64,000 nucleotides of DNA from Alkalispirochaeta sp. (GTDB lineage Bacteria; Spirochaetota; Spirochaetia; DSM-27196; Alkalispirochaetaceae), in contig OZ271854.1 of NCBI GenBank assembly GCA_965601925.1, positions 448,001 to 512,000 on the forward strand. The letters are read 5' to 3'. Below, in pieces: positions 5,356-22,299 of this stretch (its first letter is position 1; the number at the start of each line of letters is the position of its first letter). The translations under genes were made by a program, and so were the position numbers. Under the pieces are notes generated by a model. The model ran no database searches, had not been told where the DNA came from, and saw nothing but the letters and a program-made list of their open reading frames with translations.

Positions 5356-5533
5356 GCGCGAACCCCAAGCGCACACGGAAAAACCGGCACGTTCGCGATG
5401 ACAATAAATATTTACTGTACAATATTTTATGGGTACGATGGTTTTGTAAGAGATCAAAAATTATCGCATAGAGTCGGCTATCGCATATCAAGCGAACTAA
5501 AGTGCTGTAAGGTATTAACTTATCAGTCGAACG
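5356..5533 (+). promoter_or_regulatory. CRISPR leader of array 1
   Basis: AT-rich segment before the first repeat; begins with a CGCGAAC...GTTCGCG inverted motif shared with the array 2 leader. Confidence 0.85.
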
Positions 5534-6692
5534 GTCGCTCCTCACGCGGGAGCGTGGATTGAAACTGCAGTTCAGCCCTTGCTTTGCCGAAACGCTGGGT
5601 CGCTCCTCACGCGGGAGCGTGGATTGAAACTACTCCGACGATGACTCCTACGAGCGCTATATCAGGTCGCTCCTCACGCGGGAGCGTGGATTGAAACACC
5701 GTGTATCACGGCTACTTCCTCCCAACCCGCAGGTCGCTCCTCACGCGGGAGCGTGGATTGAAACTGGTACGTGAGATAGAGGAGCTCCTGCCTGTTGTGT
5801 CGCTCCTCACGCGGGAGCGTGGATTGAAACTTGCCCTCGGAGATGCTGGGCACGTTCCATGCGGGTCGCTCCTCACGCGGGAGCGTGGATTGAAACTCGT
5901 TGGGGCGCGACGGAACGGACTGGAAGAGCGTGTCGCTCCTCACGCGGGAGCGTGGATTGAAACACGGGCGGGGGTCTGCAGGCCCTCGAAAACGCGGGTC
6001 GCTCCTCACGCGGGAGCGTGGATTGAAACGTACCATGCGAAGTTGTGGTGGTTGTGGACCTCATGTCGCTCCTCGCGCGGGAGCGTGGATTGAAACTTTG
6101 TCGCATCACGGTCGTGACAGACGTTGTGACAGACGTCGCTCCTCACGCGGGAGCGTGGATTGAAACTCGAGGGAACGCGCCGGCGCCTTGCCGCGATGGG
6201 TCGCTCCTCACGCGGGAGCGTGGATTGAAACACCCATATCACACGTCAAAATTTTGCTGTATGACGTCGCTCCTCGCGCGGGAGCGTGGATTGAAACTAC
6301 GCGACGCAAGGCATGCGCCAAGCACTCGGGGGTCGCTCCTCACGCGGGAGCGTGGATTGAAACAACGAAGTGTCTGAGGAAGACTGGAAACGCGCCGGTC
6401 GCTCCCCATGCGGGGGCGTGGATTGAAACCGGGTAGCCGGCAAAAAGCGTCTCTCTCGTCGCGTCGCTCCCCATGCGGGGGCGTGGATTGAAACCGGATC
6501 AGCTGTGACGCGCCGACACCGGTAATGAGTCGCTCCTCATGCGGGAGCGTGGATTGAAACAAAAACGACTCGGTCGCATCCAGGGTGCCGCCCCGTCGCT
6601 CCCCATGCGGGGGCGTGGATTGAGACCTGTCCCACTCCAACGCCTCGCTCACGATCACGAGTCGCTCCTCACACAAGAGCATAGGTCGAAAC
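5534..6692 (+). CRISPR. Type I-C CRISPR array 1: 17 repeats plus a degenerate terminal repeat, 17 spacers
   Basis: 32-bp repeat GTCGCTCCTCACGCGGGAGCGTGGATTGAAAC starting at 5534, 5599, 5666 ... 6595; spacers 33-38 bp; degenerate copy GTCGCTCCTCACACAAGAGCATAGGTCGAAAC at 6661. Confidence 0.99.
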
Positions 6693-6812: not shown

Positions 6813-9038
6813 ATGCAGTACTACGCCCATAGCCTTCCGGATACGCCTCCCTCGGAGTGGCAGCCGTTAGAGGATCATCTCTACGCCGTCGCCGACAAGG
6901 CGCGGGAGTTCGCCGAAGGCTTCGGGTTCGGCGATTGGGCGTATCTTGCCGGGTTGTGGCATGACCTCGGGAAGTACTCGCTGGACTTTCAGCAGAAAGT
7001 GTTGGGAAGCAATTCCGAAGGCTATCGCGACGGACACGTCGCCGAGAAACGGGGACGTGTCGACCATTCGAGTGCGGGAGCGCAGTGGGCCGACGCCCAA
7101 GAGACGTGGCATGTGGCAAGCCGCTTCATCAGCTACGCAATCGCAGGCCACCACGCGGGTCTTCCTGACTACGAGTCGGACAACAACGCCTGTCTTATTG
7201 AGAGACTCAAAAAACGGATACCGGCCACGGCGCCCCCAATAGAGATCGCCTCACCGCCGTACGCCGCCTCGCCCTCCTTACCGGCTTGGAATGAGACCGG
7301 TAAGGAGGGCTACTTTTCATTCTCCTTTGCGATCCGCATGATTTTCTCGTGCCTTGTTGACGCCGATTGTCTCGACACCGAGTCATTCTGCGACCGTGAA
7401 AAGCATTCGATACGAAATGGATTTCCTTCCGCCGTCGAGCTGAAAGACGCTCTGGAACGCAGGCTTGCCAAGTTTGATACGGCAGAGAAAACGACCGTGA
7501 ACAAAGTACGACAGGCCGTCTCGTCGGCGTGTCGTCTCGGTGCGAAGATGGAACCGGGCTTCTTCTCTCTAACCGTGCCGACCGGCGGCGGCAAGACCCT
7601 TGCGTCAATGCGATTCGCGCTCCACCACGCCCTCAAGTATGAGAAACGACGGGTGATATACGCAATTCCCTACACCAGCATCATCGAGCAGACCGTCGGC
7701 GTGTTCCGAGACGTATTCGGCGAAGAGGTCGTAGTCGAGCACCACAGTCGCGTCGAGGCCAATGATGCGCACGAGACGACGCGTACGCGTCTCGCAGTGG
7801 AGAACTGGGAGGCGCCGGTCGTCGTTACGACGAACGTGCAGTTTTTTGAATCGTTATTCGCCGATAGAACGTCGCGGTGCCGCAAGCTGCACAACATCGC
7901 CGGGAGCGTAATTATCCTGGACGAGGCGCAGATGCTGCCGATTAGCCTCTTGATCCCGACGCTCGCCGCGCTCAAAGAGCTCGTAGCACACTACGGCTGC
8001 AGTGTCGTCTTATGCACCGCGACGCAGCCGGCATTAGTCGCCGGTGATCATTTACCGCGCGGTTTGCAGAACGTCCGCGAGATCATACCGGAGCCCCGTG
8101 TCCACTTTAATGCACTCAAGCGGGTTCGGATACACGCGATCGGCCGGATCGATTGGGTTGAACTCACCGATCGCCTCGCCGGACATGACCACGTCCTCTG
8201 CATCGTCAACTCGCGACGGGACGCCCAAGAAATCTACGCTGCCCTTCTCCACAAGACTGAGCGCCGGGCCTGCTTTTATCTCACCACGTACCTGTGTCCC
8301 AAGCACCGAGACGCCGTGTTTGAAGAGATAAAACGTCGCCTCAGGGACGGGGAGCCGTGTCGTATTGTGAGCACGCAGCTCATCGAGGCGGGCGTCGACA
8401 TCGACCTCCCGGTAGTCTTTCGTGCCGTTGCCGGTATCGACAGCATCCTGCAGGCCGCGGGGCGCTGCAACCGCCACGGTACCCCGGGTCGCCTCGGCGA
8501 GGTGTTTGTCTTTGAGGGAGAGCGCCCGGCGCCCCAGGGACTTCTCAGACAAACGGCGCGCATCGGTGCAGAGTTCCTCGGCGAGGAGAACGACATTACC
8601 GAGTTCGACGCGATTACGCGGTACTTTGCGCGGCTCTATCAATACCAGGACGCTAACCTCGATGCGCGGGACCTTATGAAGCTTTTAGAACACGACGGCG
8701 CCCAGTCTCTCAGGTTTCAGTTTCGCGAGATCGCAGAACGTTACAAGCTGATCACGAGTGAAGATGTACCGATTGTGATTCGGTACGATAAAAAGGCGGA
8801 AGAACTCATACAGACACTACGGTACGCTCCGTCGCCGCGTGCGATTGTGCGACTGCTGCAGCCGTACATCGTTACGGTCCCGCAGAATGTAGCTCGGACG
8901 CTCGCACAACGGGGTGATGTATACTTGGTAGCCGATCTGATCTATGTGCTGGAGCGCAAAGACTTATACGAGAAGGACGGAGCCGGTTTTGTGATGCGCG
9001 AGTTCGCCGATATGGAACCGGCGGGGCTCACGTGGTAG
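6813..9038 (+). CDS. cas3: CRISPR-associated HD nuclease/helicase Cas3
   Basis: YYAHS, WHDLGK, IAGHHAGL, PTGGGKT, DEAQ, STQLIEAGVDID, QAAGRCNR. Confidence 0.98.
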   Translation: MQYYAHSLPDTPPSEWQPLEDHLYAVADKAREFAEGFGFGDWAYLAGLWHDLGKYSLDFQQKVLGSNSEGYRDGHVAEKRGRVDHSSAGAQWADAQETWHVASRFISYAIAGHHAGLPDYESDNNACLIERLKKRIPATAPPIEIASPPYAASPSLPAWNETGKEGYFSFSFAIRMIFSCLVDADCLDTESFCDREKHSIRNGFPSAVELKDALERRLAKFDTAEKTTVNKVRQAVSSACRLGAKMEPGFFSLTVPTGGGKTLASMRFALHHALKYEKRRVIYAIPYTSIIEQTVGVFRDVFGEEVVVEHHSRVEANDAHETTRTRLAVENWEAPVVVTTNVQFFESLFADRTSRCRKLHNIAGSVIILDEAQMLPISLLIPTLAALKELVAHYGCSVVLCTATQPALVAGDHLPRGLQNVREIIPEPRVHFNALKRVRIHAIGRIDWVELTDRLAGHDHVLCIVNSRRDAQEIYAALLHKTERRACFYLTTYLCPKHRDAVFEEIKRRLRDGEPCRIVSTQLIEAGVDIDLPVVFRAVAGIDSILQAAGRCNRHGTPGRLGEVFVFEGERPAPQGLLRQTARIGAEFLGEENDITEFDAITRYFARLYQYQDANLDARDLMKLLEHDGAQSLRFQFREIAERYKLITSEDVPIVIRYDKKAEELIQTLRYAPSPRAIVRLLQPYIVTVPQNVARTLAQRGDVYLVADLIYVLERKDLYEKDGAGFVMREFADMEPAGLTW

Positions 9039-9117
9039 CCGATAGGGCACCGGTATAGACGGAGTCACGGGAATCCCGCTCTTCTCGGAGCAGGCTCCTG
9101 TTCACTTGATCACTGTT

Positions 9118-9130
9118 TATACATTGTATA
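9118..9130. promoter_or_regulatory. Palindromic operator upstream of mazE (probable TA autorepression site)
   Basis: TATACA-T-TGTATA 10 bp before the mazE ATG. Confidence 0.6.
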
Positions 9131-9140
9131 TCCTCATCGT

Positions 9141-9377
9141 ATGGAAGCAAAAATACAGCGATGGGGAAATAGTTTGGGCATTCGAATCCCCGCGGCGATG
9201 GCGCGGGAACTCCATTTACAGAACGGATCCGTCGTCGATGTCGTAGAGGAGTCGAACAGCATCGTTATCCGCCCCGCGAAGAGGCACGATATACACTCCC
9301 TTTTGAACGCAATAACCGACGATAATCGGCACTCCGAGGTCGCCTGGGGCACTCAAGAAGGGAACGAGGCGTGGTGA
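9141..9377 (+). CDS. mazE: AbrB/MazE-family antitoxin
   Basis: KIQRWGNSLGIRIP N-terminus, LLNAITDDNRH.EVAWG...GNEAW C-terminus; overlaps the toxin start. Confidence 0.95.
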   Translation: MEAKIQRWGNSLGIRIPAAMARELHLQNGSVVDVVEESNSIVIRPAKRHDIHSLLNAITDDNRHSEVAWGTQEGNEAW

Positions 9378-9709
9378 CGAGCGCCTACGTGCCAGATCGC
9401 GGTGACATCGTCTGGTTAAGTTTTTCTCCGCAATCGGGCCATGAGCAAGCGGGTAGGCGTCCCGCGATCGTACTCTCACCGGCCGAGTACAACGGCAAAA
9501 CCGATCTTATGATCGCGTGTCCGATCACCAGCAGAATAAAGGGATATCCATTTGAGACTCGCATACGAGGAGCGCGAATCGACGGTGTCGTCCTCTCCGA
9601 CCAGGTAAAGAGTCTCGACTGGAAAACGCGTAATGCAACCTTTGCGGAGAAGGCGAAGGCGGAGGTTCTGCGGGAGGTACGAGGTAAACTGATGGTGCTC
9701 CTCGATTGA
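9371..9709 (+). CDS. mazF: MazF/PemK endoribonuclease toxin
   Basis: YVPDRGDIVW.SFSPQSGHEQAGRRPAIVLSP..YN, CPITS, DQVKSLDW..R. Confidence 0.96.
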   Translation: MVTSAYVPDRGDIVWLSFSPQSGHEQAGRRPAIVLSPAEYNGKTDLMIACPITSRIKGYPFETRIRGARIDGVVLSDQVKSLDWKTRNATFAEKAKAEVLREVRGKLMVLLD

Positions 9710-9825
9710 GGAATGGAGTGCCGCTTATGAATCAGTATCGTCGTGTGGTGCCCGTATTTGGTATGTGACGACGAGGGGCCGCTCTGACCTCGAGGCAACG
9801 AGCCTCCAATTTCTTGCTCTCTTGC

Positions 9826-9871
9826 TTGACAGGTGCACTTCTTGGATGTACCATGATACGAGAAGTACGAA
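9826..9871 (+). promoter_or_regulatory. Sigma70-type promoter overlapping a PAM-flanked target of the crRNA-like guide
   Basis: TTGACA (9826-9831), 17 bp, TACCAT (9849-9854); minus strand reads TTC-GTACTTCTCGTATCATG (9871 to 9852). Confidence 0.8.
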
Positions 9872-10094
9872 ATATAAAAAATCAATATCAACGCATTCGC
9901 TTTCAAATAATCGAGAGTACGGAAAGTCGCGCGATTGAATATGAGGAACAAACGTACAACCTGCCGAACAGGGCGCGAGGGAGTCAAAGTACCCGGTCAG
10001 CTTGGTCATTGTTCGCTGGATTACTTCACATCGCAAATTGGATTCGCAGCGCTTTTGGTGGATAAAGAAATCAGGACTGTGCATCGATCTTTTT

Positions 10095-10146
10095 GTCGGG
10101 CTTTTTACCCGCGGATTGAAACGTACTACTCGTTTCATGTGTGTTC
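10095..10146 (+). ncRNA. crRNA-like regulatory guide RNA (degenerate repeat plus about 24-nt spacer; CreA/CreR-like)
   Basis: GT-CGGG-cttttta-CCCG-CGGATTGAAAC mimics the repeat layout (GT, stem-loop, 11-nt handle TGGATTGAAAC); spacer GTACTACTCGTTTCATG matches 9868-9852 at 15/17. Confidence 0.8.
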
Positions 10147-10185
10147 GTGAGGAACCGGCCCTCGGGTCGGTTCCTCACCTTTCTT
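10147..10185 (+). terminator. Strong hairpin closing the guide RNA, terminator-like
   Basis: GTGAGGAACCGGCC-ctcg-GGTCGGTTCCTCAC (14 bp with one G:U) then CTTTCTT. Confidence 0.75.
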
Positions 10186-10276
10186 CAATTATCACCAGCA
10201 ATACCGATAAAAATTATTTTAGAATATACAAAAGTATGTGATAATATGACCACAACTAAATATTGTGGGGAGCGGT

Positions 10277-10927
10277 GTGTCCTTCGGAATAACACTCAAA
10301 GCCTGGGGTCCGTTCGCACTCTTTACGCGCCCGGAGATGAAGGCCGAACGTGTCAGCTACGACGTCATGACGCCCTCCGCGGCCCGGGGCATTCTCGATG
10401 CAATCTACTGGAAGCCGGGGATGCGGTGGGTCGTCGATCGGATTGAGGTGCGCAAGCCGATCCGCTTCACTTCCATTCGACGCAACGAGATTGCGGGAAA
10501 GATCCCGGTTGGAAAGGTGAAAAGCGCGATGAGAGGCGGCGAGATGCCCTTTACCGTGGTCGAGGATCACCGCCAACAACGTTCATCGTTGGTGCTCCGG
10601 GATGTCGAGTATCTCATCGATGCGCACTTCGAGCTGACCGGCTACGGCGATAACAATGAGGCGAAACATATCGATACGTTTCGTCGTCGAGCGCGGTCCG
10701 GGCGCTGTCACCACCAACCGTGCATGGGTACACGGGAGTTTCCGGCCTACTTTGAACTGATCGAGGATAATCGTCCCCCCAAACATTACCGCGAAAGCCG
10801 CGATCTCGGATGGATGTTGTACGACATGAACTTTGCCGCTGATCCCGAAAGTCCGTCGCCGAGCTTCTTCCGCGCCGAGATGGTGGAAGGGGTAATCGAC
10901 CTGCACGGGGCGGACATACGGGGATAG
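10277..10927 (+). CDS. cas5c: Type I-C Cas5c (Cas5d) crRNA-processing subunit
   Basis: WGPFALFTRPEMKAERVSYDVMTPSAARGIL.AIYWKP, RRNE, QPCMGTREF; GTG after GGGGAG. Confidence 0.97.
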   Translation: MSFGITLKAWGPFALFTRPEMKAERVSYDVMTPSAARGILDAIYWKPGMRWVVDRIEVRKPIRFTSIRRNEIAGKIPVGKVKSAMRGGEMPFTVVEDHRQQRSSLVLRDVEYLIDAHFELTGYGDNNEAKHIDTFRRRARSGRCHHQPCMGTREFPAYFELIEDNRPPKHYRESRDLGWMLYDMNFAADPESPSPSFFRAEMVEGVIDLHGADIRG

Positions 10928-15308: not shown

Positions 15309-15599
15309 ATGTTGGTGGTCGTGAGTTATGACGTGAAGACCGACGAGGCGGACGGCAAGAGACGCTTACGCCACGTTGCGAAGCACTGCCTCAATTTCGG
15401 CCAACGCGTTCAGTACTCGGTATTCGAATGTCTCGTTGATCCGGCGCAATGGACCAAACTCAGACAGAAGCTCGTTGAGACGATCGATGAGCGCTACGAT
15501 AGCTTGCGATTCTATTTCCTGGGAGCCAATTGGAAGCGGCGCGTCGAGCATATCGGGGCTAAAGAGCCGTACGATCCGGAGGGTGCGCTCATCGTATAG
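15309..15599 (+). CDS. cas2: Cas2
   Basis: MLVVVSYDV, GQRVQYSVFEC, DSLRFY.LG. Confidence 0.98.
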   Translation: MLVVVSYDVKTDEADGKRRLRHVAKHCLNFGQRVQYSVFECLVDPAQWTKLRQKLVETIDERYDSLRFYFLGANWKRRVEHIGAKEPYDPEGALIV

Positions 15600-15776
15600 C
15601 GCGAACCCTAAGCTCACGCGAAAATACCGGAATGTTCGCGATGAATATAATTCATTACGATATAGATATTTATTGTTTTCCATGTCTTTCGAAAGAGACA
15701 ACACCGCTACAAAACCCCTGCCTTCGCGCAGTAAACTTATTAACTATAGATGTCGTATCGACTTAAGAGTTGAGCA
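15599..15776 (+). promoter_or_regulatory. CRISPR leader of array 2
   Basis: AT-rich; same 46-bp motif at the same 178-bp distance from the first repeat as in leader 1. Confidence 0.85.
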
Positions 15777-19506: not shown

Positions 19507-22299
19507 GTGGTACGAAAGAACGTACTGCAGGCTGCGGTAGCGGCAAGCGTCGCTCTCTTTTTGTCGGCCGGTTGTATACAACCGTTCGGGTTCTCCCCCG
19601 AAGCGCTGCAAGCCACCGCTCAAGAAGAGCTCCCCCAGGTTGAAGCACCCCTCTTTGCTATCGCCCCGGGCGTATACAATCGCGATCTATCGTTGTCACT
19701 CTCCACACCGACCGCGGAGGCGACGATCCATGTAACGACGGACGGCACGACACCGACCGAGTCGTCGCCGGTATACACCGGTCCGATACCCATCACGGGA
19801 CACGAAACGACCGTCACGATACAAGCGATAGCCGCCAAAGAGGACATGCGCCCAAGCGATGTAGCGAGCGCGACCTATACGATCAACTACAACGCGGTAA
19901 ATCCCCCGACCTTTTCGGTGCTGCCGGGAACCTACAATACCGATCAGTTCGTCTCCATCGTGAGCGATGAGCCGGTGGCGACGATCTTCTACACCACCGA
20001 CGGCACCGATCCCGATCCCGCAGACCCGTCGCAGATCTACGGCGGTCCGATTCCGGTCGTCGGCCACGATACGATCGTCACCATCAACGCGATCGCCGTT
20101 GCGCCCCAAGCGCTCCCCAGCACCGTGGCGAGCGCGACCTACACCATCAACTACAACGCGGTAAATCCCCCGACCTTTTCGGTGCTGCCGGGAACCTACA
20201 ATACCGATCAGTCCGTCTCCATCGAGAGCGATGAGCCGGCGGCGACGATCTTCTACACCACCGACGGCACCGATCCCGATCCCGCAGACCCGTCGCAGAT
20301 CTACGGCGGTCCGATTCCGGTCGTCGGCCACGATACGATCGTCACCATCAACGCAATCGCCGTTGCGCCCCAAACGCTCCCCAGCACCGTGGCGAGCGCG
20401 ACCTACACCATTAACTACGACGCGGCAAATGCTCCCTCTTTTAGCCTCGCTCCCGGCACCTACGACACCGACCAAAGTGTAACGATCACCAACAACGATC
20501 CCGATGCGACGATCTACTACACCACCGACGGGTCCGATCCCGATACAAACGATCCGTCGCAGATCTACGGCGGGGAGACGATATCGGTCGCCGGTCATAA
20601 CACAACTGTTACGATTATCGCCACTGCGACCGCGCCGCAAAAGCAACCCGCCACGGTGACCGGCACCTACTCGATCGTTTGGAACACCGTCGCGACGCCG
20701 ATCTTCCAAACGAGCGCGGCGCCGACGTACGACAACGCAATCTCGGTCTCCATCTCCATGTCGACCGCGGGAGCGACCATCCACTACACCACCGACGGCT
20801 CACCGCCTACGGCGTCATCGACGCAGTACGGGGGGCCCATCGCGGTCGATGGGACGACTACCATTCGGGCGATCGGTGTTCGCTCGGGGTACGTCGACTC
20901 GGCCGGCGCGACTGCAACCTACAATTTCAAGACGGCGCCGGTGTCGATAAATACCTCCGGAGGAACATTCAACAACGCCGTCGCCGGTGTGGAGCTCTCG
21001 ACAAATACGAGCGGCGCCACGATCCACTACACGACCGACGGCTCCACGCCCACGCCGTCATCGACGCAATACGGCGGCCCACTCACGATAACCTCGACGC
21101 AAACACTCCGAGCAATCGCCGTCAAGACCGACTACGCCGACTCCAATGTGGCGAGCGAAACGTACACCTTGGTGGTAGCCGACGTGTTCTTCAGCATCAC
21201 CGGTGGAACCTTCGACAACGACATCAACACCATAACGCTGTGGACGGAGACGAACGACGCAACGATCTACTACACCACCGACGGCAGTTTTCCAAACCCG
21301 GCAACGTCCGACGTCTACAGCGCGCCGTTGTCGGTCACATCGAGTCAAACGATCAGCACCATCGCGGTCAAGAACGGGTATACCGATTCCAACGAAGTGT
21401 TCAACGAGTACACGATGGAGGTCGCCCCGGTCACTTTCACCCCGAACGGCGGCACCTACAATAACGATCTGGCCGCCGTAACGCTCTCTACCAACACAAC
21501 CGACGCAACGATCCACTACACTACGGACAACACTACGCCCACGACGGGATCGCCGATATACGGCGCCCCGTTGTCCGTCACATCGGATCAGACGATCCGC
21601 GCCATCGCCGTTAAGAACGGATATGCGGGTACGGGTGTGTTCACCGCATCATATGCGTTTCAAGTCGCGGAGGTCGATTTCAGCGTCGCACCGGGGAGTT
21701 ACACGCAATCGTTTAATGTAGCACTCACGACGACGACAACCGGAGCCGCCGTTCACTATACCCTCGACGGCTCCGAGCCGACGGCGAGCTCACCGACATA
21801 CTCCGGATCGATTCCCATCCAAGAGACGACGACATTGCGAGCGCGCGCATTCAGGAACGGATACACGGCCGGCCCGATAAGTACGGCCGCCTACACGCTC
21901 GATACGCCGTATCACAACACCACCTTCGCCGATGTGCAGCAGGCGCAGGATGCCGGACAGTTGAACACGACACCGACAGACAACAGCGGGGCCAACCGAC
22001 TGCCGTTAGGCACGGTCTTCTATATCAGCACCGATCAAGGCAGGCTGGTCAAGCTCGTGCTGCGAGAAGATAAGGGAGACGGGTACTGGTACGATCTCAT
22101 TGCGTATAACAACGACGGTTCGGTATTTCAGCACCGCGTGCGGAACTTCATCAACCCGAACAACTCCGTCGACGCCGACTTTGGATTCACCTACGAGGGG
22201 ACGGGAACGGGAGAGTTCGCTCTGACGGCGGCGGACGGTACACCACCAACGAGCTTCATACCGATAAACGGGGCGACAATGCTCGTTATCCGCCCGTGA
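19507..22299 (+). CDS. Surface lipoprotein with nine Fn3-associated/chitobiase C-terminal-like repeats
   Basis: Lipobox LSAGC; nine repeats of P.F...G.Y....ATI.YTTDG..P...Y..PI; unique C-terminal domain. Confidence 0.88.
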   Translation: MVRKNVLQAAVAASVALFLSAGCIQPFGFSPEALQATAQEELPQVEAPLFAIAPGVYNRDLSLSLSTPTAEATIHVTTDGTTPTESSPVYTGPIPITGHETTVTIQAIAAKEDMRPSDVASATYTINYNAVNPPTFSVLPGTYNTDQFVSIVSDEPVATIFYTTDGTDPDPADPSQIYGGPIPVVGHDTIVTINAIAVAPQALPSTVASATYTINYNAVNPPTFSVLPGTYNTDQSVSIESDEPAATIFYTTDGTDPDPADPSQIYGGPIPVVGHDTIVTINAIAVAPQTLPSTVASATYTINYDAANAPSFSLAPGTYDTDQSVTITNNDPDATIYYTTDGSDPDTNDPSQIYGGETISVAGHNTTVTIIATATAPQKQPATVTGTYSIVWNTVATPIFQTSAAPTYDNAISVSISMSTAGATIHYTTDGSPPTASSTQYGGPIAVDGTTTIRAIGVRSGYVDSAGATATYNFKTAPVSINTSGGTFNNAVAGVELSTNTSGATIHYTTDGSTPTPSSTQYGGPLTITSTQTLRAIAVKTDYADSNVASETYTLVVADVFFSITGGTFDNDINTITLWTETNDATIYYTTDGSFPNPATSDVYSAPLSVTSSQTISTIAVKNGYTDSNEVFNEYTMEVAPVTFTPNGGTYNNDLAAVTLSTNTTDATIHYTTDNTTPTTGSPIYGAPLSVTSDQTIRAIAVKNGYAGTGVFTASYAFQVAEVDFSVAPGSYTQSFNVALTTTTTGAAVHYTLDGSEPTASSPTYSGSIPIQETTTLRARAFRNGYTAGPISTAAYTLDTPYHNTTFADVQQAQDAGQLNTTPTDNSGANRLPLGTVFYISTDQGRLVKLVLREDKGDGYWYDLIAYNNDGSVFQHRVRNFINPNNSVDADFGFTYEGTGTGEFALTAADGTPPTSFIPINGATMLVIRP
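19882..20409 (+). repeat. Near-identical 264-bp tandem duplication within the lipoprotein gene
   Basis: ATCAACTACAACGCGGTAAATCCCCCGACC... starts at 19882 and again at 20146; only a few substitutions. Confidence 0.95.

Follow-up and report, generated by a model that had tools for sequence, protein, structure and literature searches.

A crRNA-like guide aimed at its own promoter and a candidate small-peptide cargo in a type I-C CRISPR-Cas locus of Alkalispirochaeta sp.

What does a short transcript carry when the guide at its own 3′ end appears to silence it? The question is raised by a stretch of 64,000 nucleotides (nt) of Alkalispirochaeta sp. DNA (the window; contig OZ271854.1 of assembly GCA_965601925.1, positions 448,001 to 512,000), where a circuit of this kind and its candidate cargo are both located in the gap between a mazE-mazF toxin-antitoxin pair and cas5c. 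A first-pass annotation of the window had hesitated between an RNA or peptide toxin and a leader of the cas operon, and held that the sequence alone could not decide. Read together with its relatives, the sequence does shift the balance, and the annotation was right that the repressed unit may carry a toxic cargo. The repressed stretch most likely encodes an overlooked membrane-binding peptide of 63 residues, a candidate toxin.

The guide unit and its target

In the gap, a degenerate I-C repeat, a guide and a 3′ hairpin form a CRISPR RNA (crRNA)-like RNA (crlRNA), and the layout in which this guide targets the promoter of its own transcript is real (Table 1). The sequence features of type I-C regulatory crlRNAs are found together: the repeat is solitary and degenerate, carries an 11-nt 5′ handle and lies directly upstream of cas5c; the promoter match is partial and proximal to the protospacer-adjacent motif (PAM), with a TTC PAM and mismatches at positions 6 and 12; and the loop of the 3′ hairpin begins at a distance of 49 nt from where Cas5c is predicted to cut, at the start of the handle. 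The hairpin of the degenerate repeat itself is weak (−5.4 vs −10.8 and −13.0 kcal/mol). An equivalent order of target, cargo, solitary repeat unit and cas5c was shown experimentally for other I-C loci, with mature crlRNAs of 48-50 nt that end in the loop of the 3′ hairpin, according to the available text of the corresponding preprint (10.1101/2024.12.27.630466). By analogy with these published systems, the guide RNA would be processed from its transcript and would repress the promoter.

The pairing between guide and target, 15 of 17 positions, exceeds chance and gives the best TTC-PAM site in the genome. Although 7,886 genomic sites match the 5-nt seed, only the one at 9868->9852 runs beyond position 14, besides the guide itself, and the runner-up among TTC-flanked sites runs only to position 12. 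A genome-wide scan returned no second guide (eight other handle-like sites, with no target scoring above 9), and no full-length self-targeting spacer occurs among the 33 of the arrays. A near-copy of part of the target (9859-9872) is also seen at 9911-9924, 52 nt downstream inside the cargo, with a match to the 5-nt seed and a TCC PAM, one base shorter.

The hairpin that follows the guide lies where the first-pass annotation had placed it and comprises 14 bp (−26.0 kcal/mol), with the tail CTTTCTTC. Its reading as a terminator separating cas5c is favoured by the U-rich tail and by a positive score from a terminator formula (+20), but the element is primarily a part of the guide RNA, since its loop stands 49 nt from the cut as in the I-C crlRNAs with RNAs of 48-50 nt. 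Similar 3′ hairpins were found in 11 of 13 surveyed units, where the first eight bases of the tail include five T here vs 0-3 in the other 10. As the tail is imperfect, partial read-through is expected. Downstream, the AT-rich stretch suggested earlier as a cas5c promoter has 21% GC, a value as low in only 0.02% of the 61-nt windows of this 60% GC genome; the −10-like motif that had been proposed within it gives way to a better, extended −10 element (TG-A-TAATAT, 10239-10247) about 30 nt upstream of the cas5c GTG and its Shine-Dalgarno (SD) motif, and no guide target was found at this candidate promoter. Both the U-rich tail and an apparent untargeted promoter of its own for cas5c argue against pure cas autoregulation. 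From these signals, cas5c appears to be served by its own untargeted promoter and probably falls inside the repressed unit only in part, which agrees with the earlier view of a separate unit.

The candidate cargo frame

From the predicted start site at 9861 to the degenerate repeat there are 234 nt, close to the 230 estimated before. The sole ATG in 9861-10094 is indeed the ATG AGG at 9941, which opens 69 codons that run through the guide to 10150, and the lack of a clear ribosome-binding site is borne out by a weak and scattered pairing with the anti-SD sequence (−3.0 vs −7.0 kcal/mol for cas5c). The product of this open reading frame (ORF) found no match in an exact look-up, frames 9941 and 9945 not having been searched in the large protein collections. 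It had been noted as the only ATG frame of any size; this left out of view the third frame, which is open over 9769-10065 and is the likelier cargo. Its stop lies 29 nt before the degenerate repeat, and a peptide of 63 residues would begin at an ATA codon (9874) lying 13 nt downstream of the predicted start site. An in-frame ATG at 9853 would give 70 residues; it sits inside the −10 box and could be used only by transcripts coming from upstream, and its product found no match in an exact look-up.

A search with the last 43 residues retrieved one homolog, P0001, which is encoded on a contig of 2,254 nt and is also 63 residues long, 71% identical over the 63 positions, with a Met at the position of the ATA and a stop in register. 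The 17 substitutions after position 1 are milder than expected from a neutral simulation (mean BLOSUM62 score of +0.24 vs −0.43 to −0.58, P 0.02-0.04), none of the 18 large hydrophobic residues is lost (P 0.02-0.045), and only two changes fall in the last 21 residues (P 0.02-0.03). Moreover, residues 41-61 are modelled by AlphaFold as a helix with a predicted local distance difference test (pLDDT) of 72-87, the remainder of the model being of low confidence and unreliable (mean pLDDT 62.7 and predicted template modelling score 0.25 overall). The maximum 19-residue hydropathy of the peptide is 0.96 and its helical moment 0.41.

Other candidates around this frame were dropped. P0002 (E 5e-4) is a 313-residue repeat protein matching 30 columns, which was considered spurious, whereas L258 and L259 stand at the level expected from 400 genomes and one of them has stops. 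No NCBIfam hit was obtained for the 83-residue frame and the Atlas gave no usable hit; with PADLOC and PHROGs outside the search, the cargo matched neither KilAC nor a named CRISIS protein, and its size matches none of the CRISIS proteins with a stated length in the available text. Scans of viral sequences with the peptide alignments confirmed none of 16 and none of 34 candidate stretches, the search of viral contigs with the handle and seed pattern gave no hits, and a tblastn search of plasmids gave one chance-level hit. A separate observation is the match at 9981-10004 to the first codons of the guide-repressed peptide of another I-C unit, L213, which was stronger than in any of 300 shuffles; its motif is not kept by P0001, and the match may be the trace of a rearrangement or chance. 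A frame starting at GTA 9954, with codons resembling those of L213, was weakened as a real gene by the fact that P0001 cannot encode there the invariant Tyr of that family or the next Val. A DNA profile ranks the site of this frame second in the genome (E 5.2), while unrelated exact matches of 17 nt reach E 0.06 in the same database.

Other type I-C loci and the competing explanations

A survey of cas5c loci, drawn from genomes in which a match had been obtained (the best 30 of 44, 24 of 24 and 30 of 37; one genome, G573, unscored), gave 214 distinct loci. Upstream of cas5c, at a distance of at most 350 nt, 16 of them have a repeat handle, and in 13 of these 16, the window locus included, the guide has a self target that is flanked by a PAM and scores at least 10 of 15, vs 6 of 800 shuffled guides; the search pattern was narrow, and L210, L212 and L218, which look like further units by eye, stand outside these counts. 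In the 11 units that remain once the window locus and L127 (with a Fic cargo) are set aside, target and repeat enclose an SD-led ORF of 30-58 residues in 6 cases (shuffles give an expectation of 1.29), and in 4 cases a strongly hydrophobic one (expectation 0.03). One of these peptides belongs to a family with conservation at the protein level in L068 and in 5 of 22 genomes of a single genus; its copies are intact in part of the cases, and broken or displaced in the rest. These loci make a peptide cargo plausible.

This family, of 54-64 residues and mostly unannotated, lies just 5′ of the guide unit (L068:2742-2909, L208:2273-2446 on the minus strand, L217:1178-1369, L213:1208-1411, L256 and L257) and displays a basic or polar N-terminus, a Tyr-x-x-x-Leu-Arg-Leu motif and a hydrophobic C-terminus; its frame is shifted in L213, and in L219/L257 what looks like an insertion sequence stands between it and the guide. 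The cas3-cas5c gaps of L051, L054, L055, L057 (with a target scored under the threshold) and L111 hold, between target and repeat, SD-led peptides of 30-48 residues that look unrelated, three of them strongly hydrophobic, and the peptides of the last four of these loci had no Pfam hits. Different cargo was also seen. In L127 the guide-targeted gene of the I-C unit encodes a Fic/DOC-domain protein of 230 residues (709-1401). In a Burkholderiaceae I-C unit (L052:2800-2880) the targeted transcript shows a creT-like arrangement, with a strong SD, a three-codon mini-ORF (ATG AGG GTG TAG) whose arginine codon is rare, and a hairpin, and L210 and L212 show by eye similar layouts of SD, mini-ORF and leader hairpin. 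In the Pelosinus-type loci L020, L029 and L130, the guide unit stands further upstream, 2.6-2.8 kb 5′ of cas5c, and the guide has its target 65-93 nt downstream, in a layout that resembles CreR and lacks a cargo. No close synteny is available for the window locus, since the gap is missing from its three same-genus cas5c matches (in two, cas5c directly adjoins the gene before it, and the third locus was read on the opposite strand) and 27 of 29 other loci of the phylum have fewer than 90 nt before cas5c.

Altogether, the proposal that the gap holds a small-peptide guard gene of the CrePA/CRISIS kind, repressed by Cascade and here weakly translated, has in our view about an even chance of being right. 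According to this proposal, the promoter at 9826 would drive one short transcript comprising the small gene and then the crRNA-like guide; Cas5c would cleave the degenerate repeat and Cascade would take up the guide of about 49 nt, so that the loaded complex would bind the TTC-flanked site that overlies −10 box and start site, where a match of about 17 nt would repress without cutting. The silenced gene would be the frame at 9874-10065, with an amphipathic terminal helix able to bind membranes. Upon loss of Cascade or its blockage by an anti-CRISPR, the promoter would open, and the released peptide would harm the membrane and arrest the cell, an outcome that CreP and the CRISIS cargo bring about by other means; the logic would be that of CrePA and CRISIS, and the peptide akin to type I toxins. 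In this genome the ATA start would hold its output down, and cas5c would be driven mainly by its own promoter behind the hairpin. Translation of the peptide, its membrane action and its toxicity are what we infer here.

Several observations weigh against this proposal. The support from P0001 is moderate, because the three statistics were picked after viewing the alignment, are not independent and stand at the protein level only; moreover, P0001 is known as a protein only, and the openness of its frame is in part a product of gene calling. Three large protein searches gave P0001 as the sole true relative, no homolog appeared in 98 other genomes of the order, and none was convincing in 400 genomes of the class (two hits at chance level). 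The peptide had no Pfam hit, and similarity to the L068/L208 family is absent (hhalign probability 0.2%); a hidden Markov model of L068, L208, L217 and L256 reached 4.9 bits in another frame only, and 20 of 3000 random windows did at least as well. The helix has an amphipathic rather than a transmembrane character (0.96 vs 1.9-2.4 for the hydrophobic cargo peptides). The start is an ATA with a weak SD (−3.0 kcal/mol), and near-cognate starts in Escherichia coli gave 1-2% of AUG, or 0.02-3% in other constructs, in the text consulted (10.1101/063800). As for the survey, 4 of the 11 units (L039, L052, L056 and L131) have no such SD-led ORF and that of L213 is frameshifted, and the loci are not independent, with L068, L208 and L213 belonging to one family and L111, L127 and L131 having similar handles and guides.

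The unusual start is also the basis of an explanation by decay, in which the 63-residue gene would have lost its canonical start in this lineage and would no longer be made, leaving a guide loop that regulates only itself. With an ATA where P0001 has Met and a weak SD, with peptides of related units frameshifted (L213) or displaced by an apparent insertion sequence (L219/L257), with a mazEF pair adjoining the stretch and with 22 of 24 nt that match a cargo peptide of another unit but lie in a different frame, which hints at a rearranged past, such a history can be drawn. It is nevertheless unlikely, as the frame is fully open with its stop in register, the helix is nearly invariant, all 15 pairing positions of guide and target are preserved, and a low-output start would suit a toxic gene. 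Similarly improbable, and able to coexist with the peptide guard, is a CreR-type autoregulation of cas genes, where the 234 nt would be a leader, read-through past the hairpin would feed cas5c-cas8c-cas7c, and the guide would set the level of Cascade by negative feedback. The available text on CreR reports I-C creA-like elements with targets beside cas promoters (10.1101/2023.03.10.532045), cas5c lies 56-95 nt after the guide with no U-tail in several surveyed units, which makes co-transcription likely there, L039 and L131 have no evident cargo, and the imperfect tail CTTTCTTC would let some polymerases through. On the other hand, among these units only the window hairpin has a U-rich tail, an untargeted promoter-like stretch follows it, and a mere leader leaves a conserved reading frame unexplained.

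A toxic RNA of the creT type, acting by sequestration of tRNAs or ribosomes or by another route, was the toxin that the first-pass annotation had in mind, and it now seems very unlikely. Such RNAs are poorly conserved and one CreT of type I-F acts by an unexplained mechanism, as far as the available text tells (10.1101/2024.01.05.574328); at 3.5 per 1000, AGG belongs here to the six rarest codons, and the arrangement of L052 places a creT-like transcript in an I-C unit. In the repressed stretch, however, no start behind a strong SD opens a mini-ORF with rare or proline codons in tandem: the ATG AGG at 9941 has neither an SD nor a stop close by, none of the starts leads into tandem codons of the rare or proline kind, and the SD-like motifs at 9943 and 9977 have no ATG, GTG or TTG at a usable distance. 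As no SD-led mini-ORF exists in the stretch, the likeness to creT falls. The cargo RNA folds moderately, the strong hairpin belonging to the guide, and the folding of the whole RNA is no better than that of shuffles (z −1.6); no Rfam family was found in it except for weak CRISPR repeat hits.

Setting of the gap and relation to known systems

The I-C locus is complete in the window. A first array (5534-6626) and cas3 (6813-9038) precede mazEF and the gap of 560 nt, and the genes cas5c-cas8c-cas7c-cas4-cas1-cas2 and a second array follow it; over 9000-10600, no variant or indel separates the window from the short-read contigs of a sample that may be its source. The mazEF pair is within the cas locus yet outside the control of the guide: the genome target scan found no guide target in its promoter, and the pair was rejected as the regulated cargo for this reason. 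The mazE gene seems to be leaderless, with a TTGATC-17-TATCCT promoter (9107-9143) that puts the start site on its ATG, and no SD. The leaders of the two arrays are related (5356-5430 vs 15599-15673, 75% over 75 nt), and the arrays differ slightly in their repeat variant, the 3′ end of the first one mixing variants. Further downstream, an ORF of 930 residues (19507-22299) with tandem repeats of 243-264 nt that encode a recurring module probably specifies a surface or secreted protein.

Table 1. Elements of the gap and its flanking genes, in coordinates of the window
Element	Position	Strand	Details
mazE-mazF toxin-antitoxin pair	9141..9709	+	Inserted 3′ of cas3; MazF above NCBIfam cut-off, MazE-like below cut-off
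Sigma70-type promoter	9826..9854	+	TTGACA-17-TACCAT; 10/12 consensus matches; predicted start site ~9861
Guide target	9852..9871	-	Match 9868->9852; TTC PAM 9871-9869; covers end of -10 box and start site
Candidate cargo gene	9874..10065	+	63 residues from ATA 9874; stop TAA 10063-10065; amphipathic C-terminal helix, residues 41-61
ATG AGG ORF, judged not cargo	9941..10150	+	No SD; overlaps guide; no NCBIfam hit
Match to N-terminal codons of L213 guide-repressed peptide	9981..10004	+	22/24 nt; frame differs from that of the 63-residue ORF
Degenerate I-C repeat	10095..10122	+	Last 10 nt as array repeat end; predicted 11-nt 5′ handle 10112-10122
Guide	10123..10146	+	24 nt; array spacers 33-38 nt
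3′ hairpin of crlRNA and U-rich tail	10147..10186	+	Hairpin 10147-10178; probable partial terminator
AT-rich candidate cas5c promoter	10200..10260	+	Extended -10 TGATAATAT
cas5c	10277..10927	+	First gene of cas5c-cas8c-cas7c-cas4-cas1-cas2; GTG start; SD GGGGAG

The guide-silenced cargo known so far comprises RNA toxins, a phage-derived protein of 103 residues and multi-domain defence systems. A wider idea, which we hold tentatively and with some doubt, is that I-C systems across several phyla silence unannotated membrane peptides of 30-64 residues between cas3 and cas5c, minimal toxins repeatedly recruited to guard Cascade against loss or anti-CRISPRs, and that the window locus would be a member damped by a near-cognate start and insulated from the cas operon by a terminator. 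If so, many elements now classed as CreR without a toxin would turn out to be guards of the toxin-antitoxin type, mostly missed by gene callers, the seemingly empty short gaps between cas3 and cas5c would hold membrane peptides, and these would offer candidate parts for CRISPR-addiction switches.

The following comparison is limited to the available text of the cited sources. The closest likeness is to CRISIS (Nezha, Gabija, Longwang and others; 10.1101/2024.12.27.630466), which shares the order of cas3, target/promoter, cargo, solitary repeat unit and cas5c, as well as the TTC PAM, the mismatches at 6 and 12, the 11-nt handle and the 3′ hairpin loop marking the end of an RNA of 48-50 nt. The cargo of CRISIS, however, consists of the defence enzymes and membrane proteins of named systems instead of one 63-residue orphan peptide with a near-cognate start, relative to the start site its target lies 37-46 bp upstream whereas that of the window covers this site and the −10 box, and the window differs further by the U-rich tail of its hairpin and by a cas5c that seems to have its own promoter. 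CrePA of Acinetobacter baylyi (type I-F; 10.1101/2024.01.05.574328) resembles the proposed arrangement in that a crRNA-like antitoxin silences a small protein gene in the region separating cas3 from the Cascade genes, but CreP is a phage KilAC domain of 103 residues that blocks division, while the window peptide, without a domain hit, terminates in an amphipathic helix. In CreTA, both in the haloarchaeal I-B systems and with the proline-codon CreT of Pseudomonas aeruginosa (10.64898/2026.06.02.729485), a guide also silences a short transcript inside the cas locus; CreT requires an SD, a mini-ORF and a hairpin, the first two of which the repressed stretch does not have. CreR (10.1101/2023.03.10.532045), for which I-C examples are mentioned, has in common the degenerate repeat guide and the partial promoter match, but targets the promoter of the effector genes, and the nearest cas5c promoter candidate of the window is untargeted. 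The membrane peptides of type I toxin-antitoxin systems (PMC12737573) resemble the candidate in being short, hydrophobic or amphipathic and restrained by an RNA, with the difference that they are controlled by antisense pairing and not by Cascade at the promoter, and that the window peptide has no Pfam match. A short orphan membrane peptide as type I-C cargo was not found in the literature searched, from which most subscription papers were absent, and the supplements of the key preprints may list such ORFs. The regulatory unit is already known in kind, and the novelty of the window locus would lie in the type of its cargo, a short orphan membrane peptide in a type I-C system.
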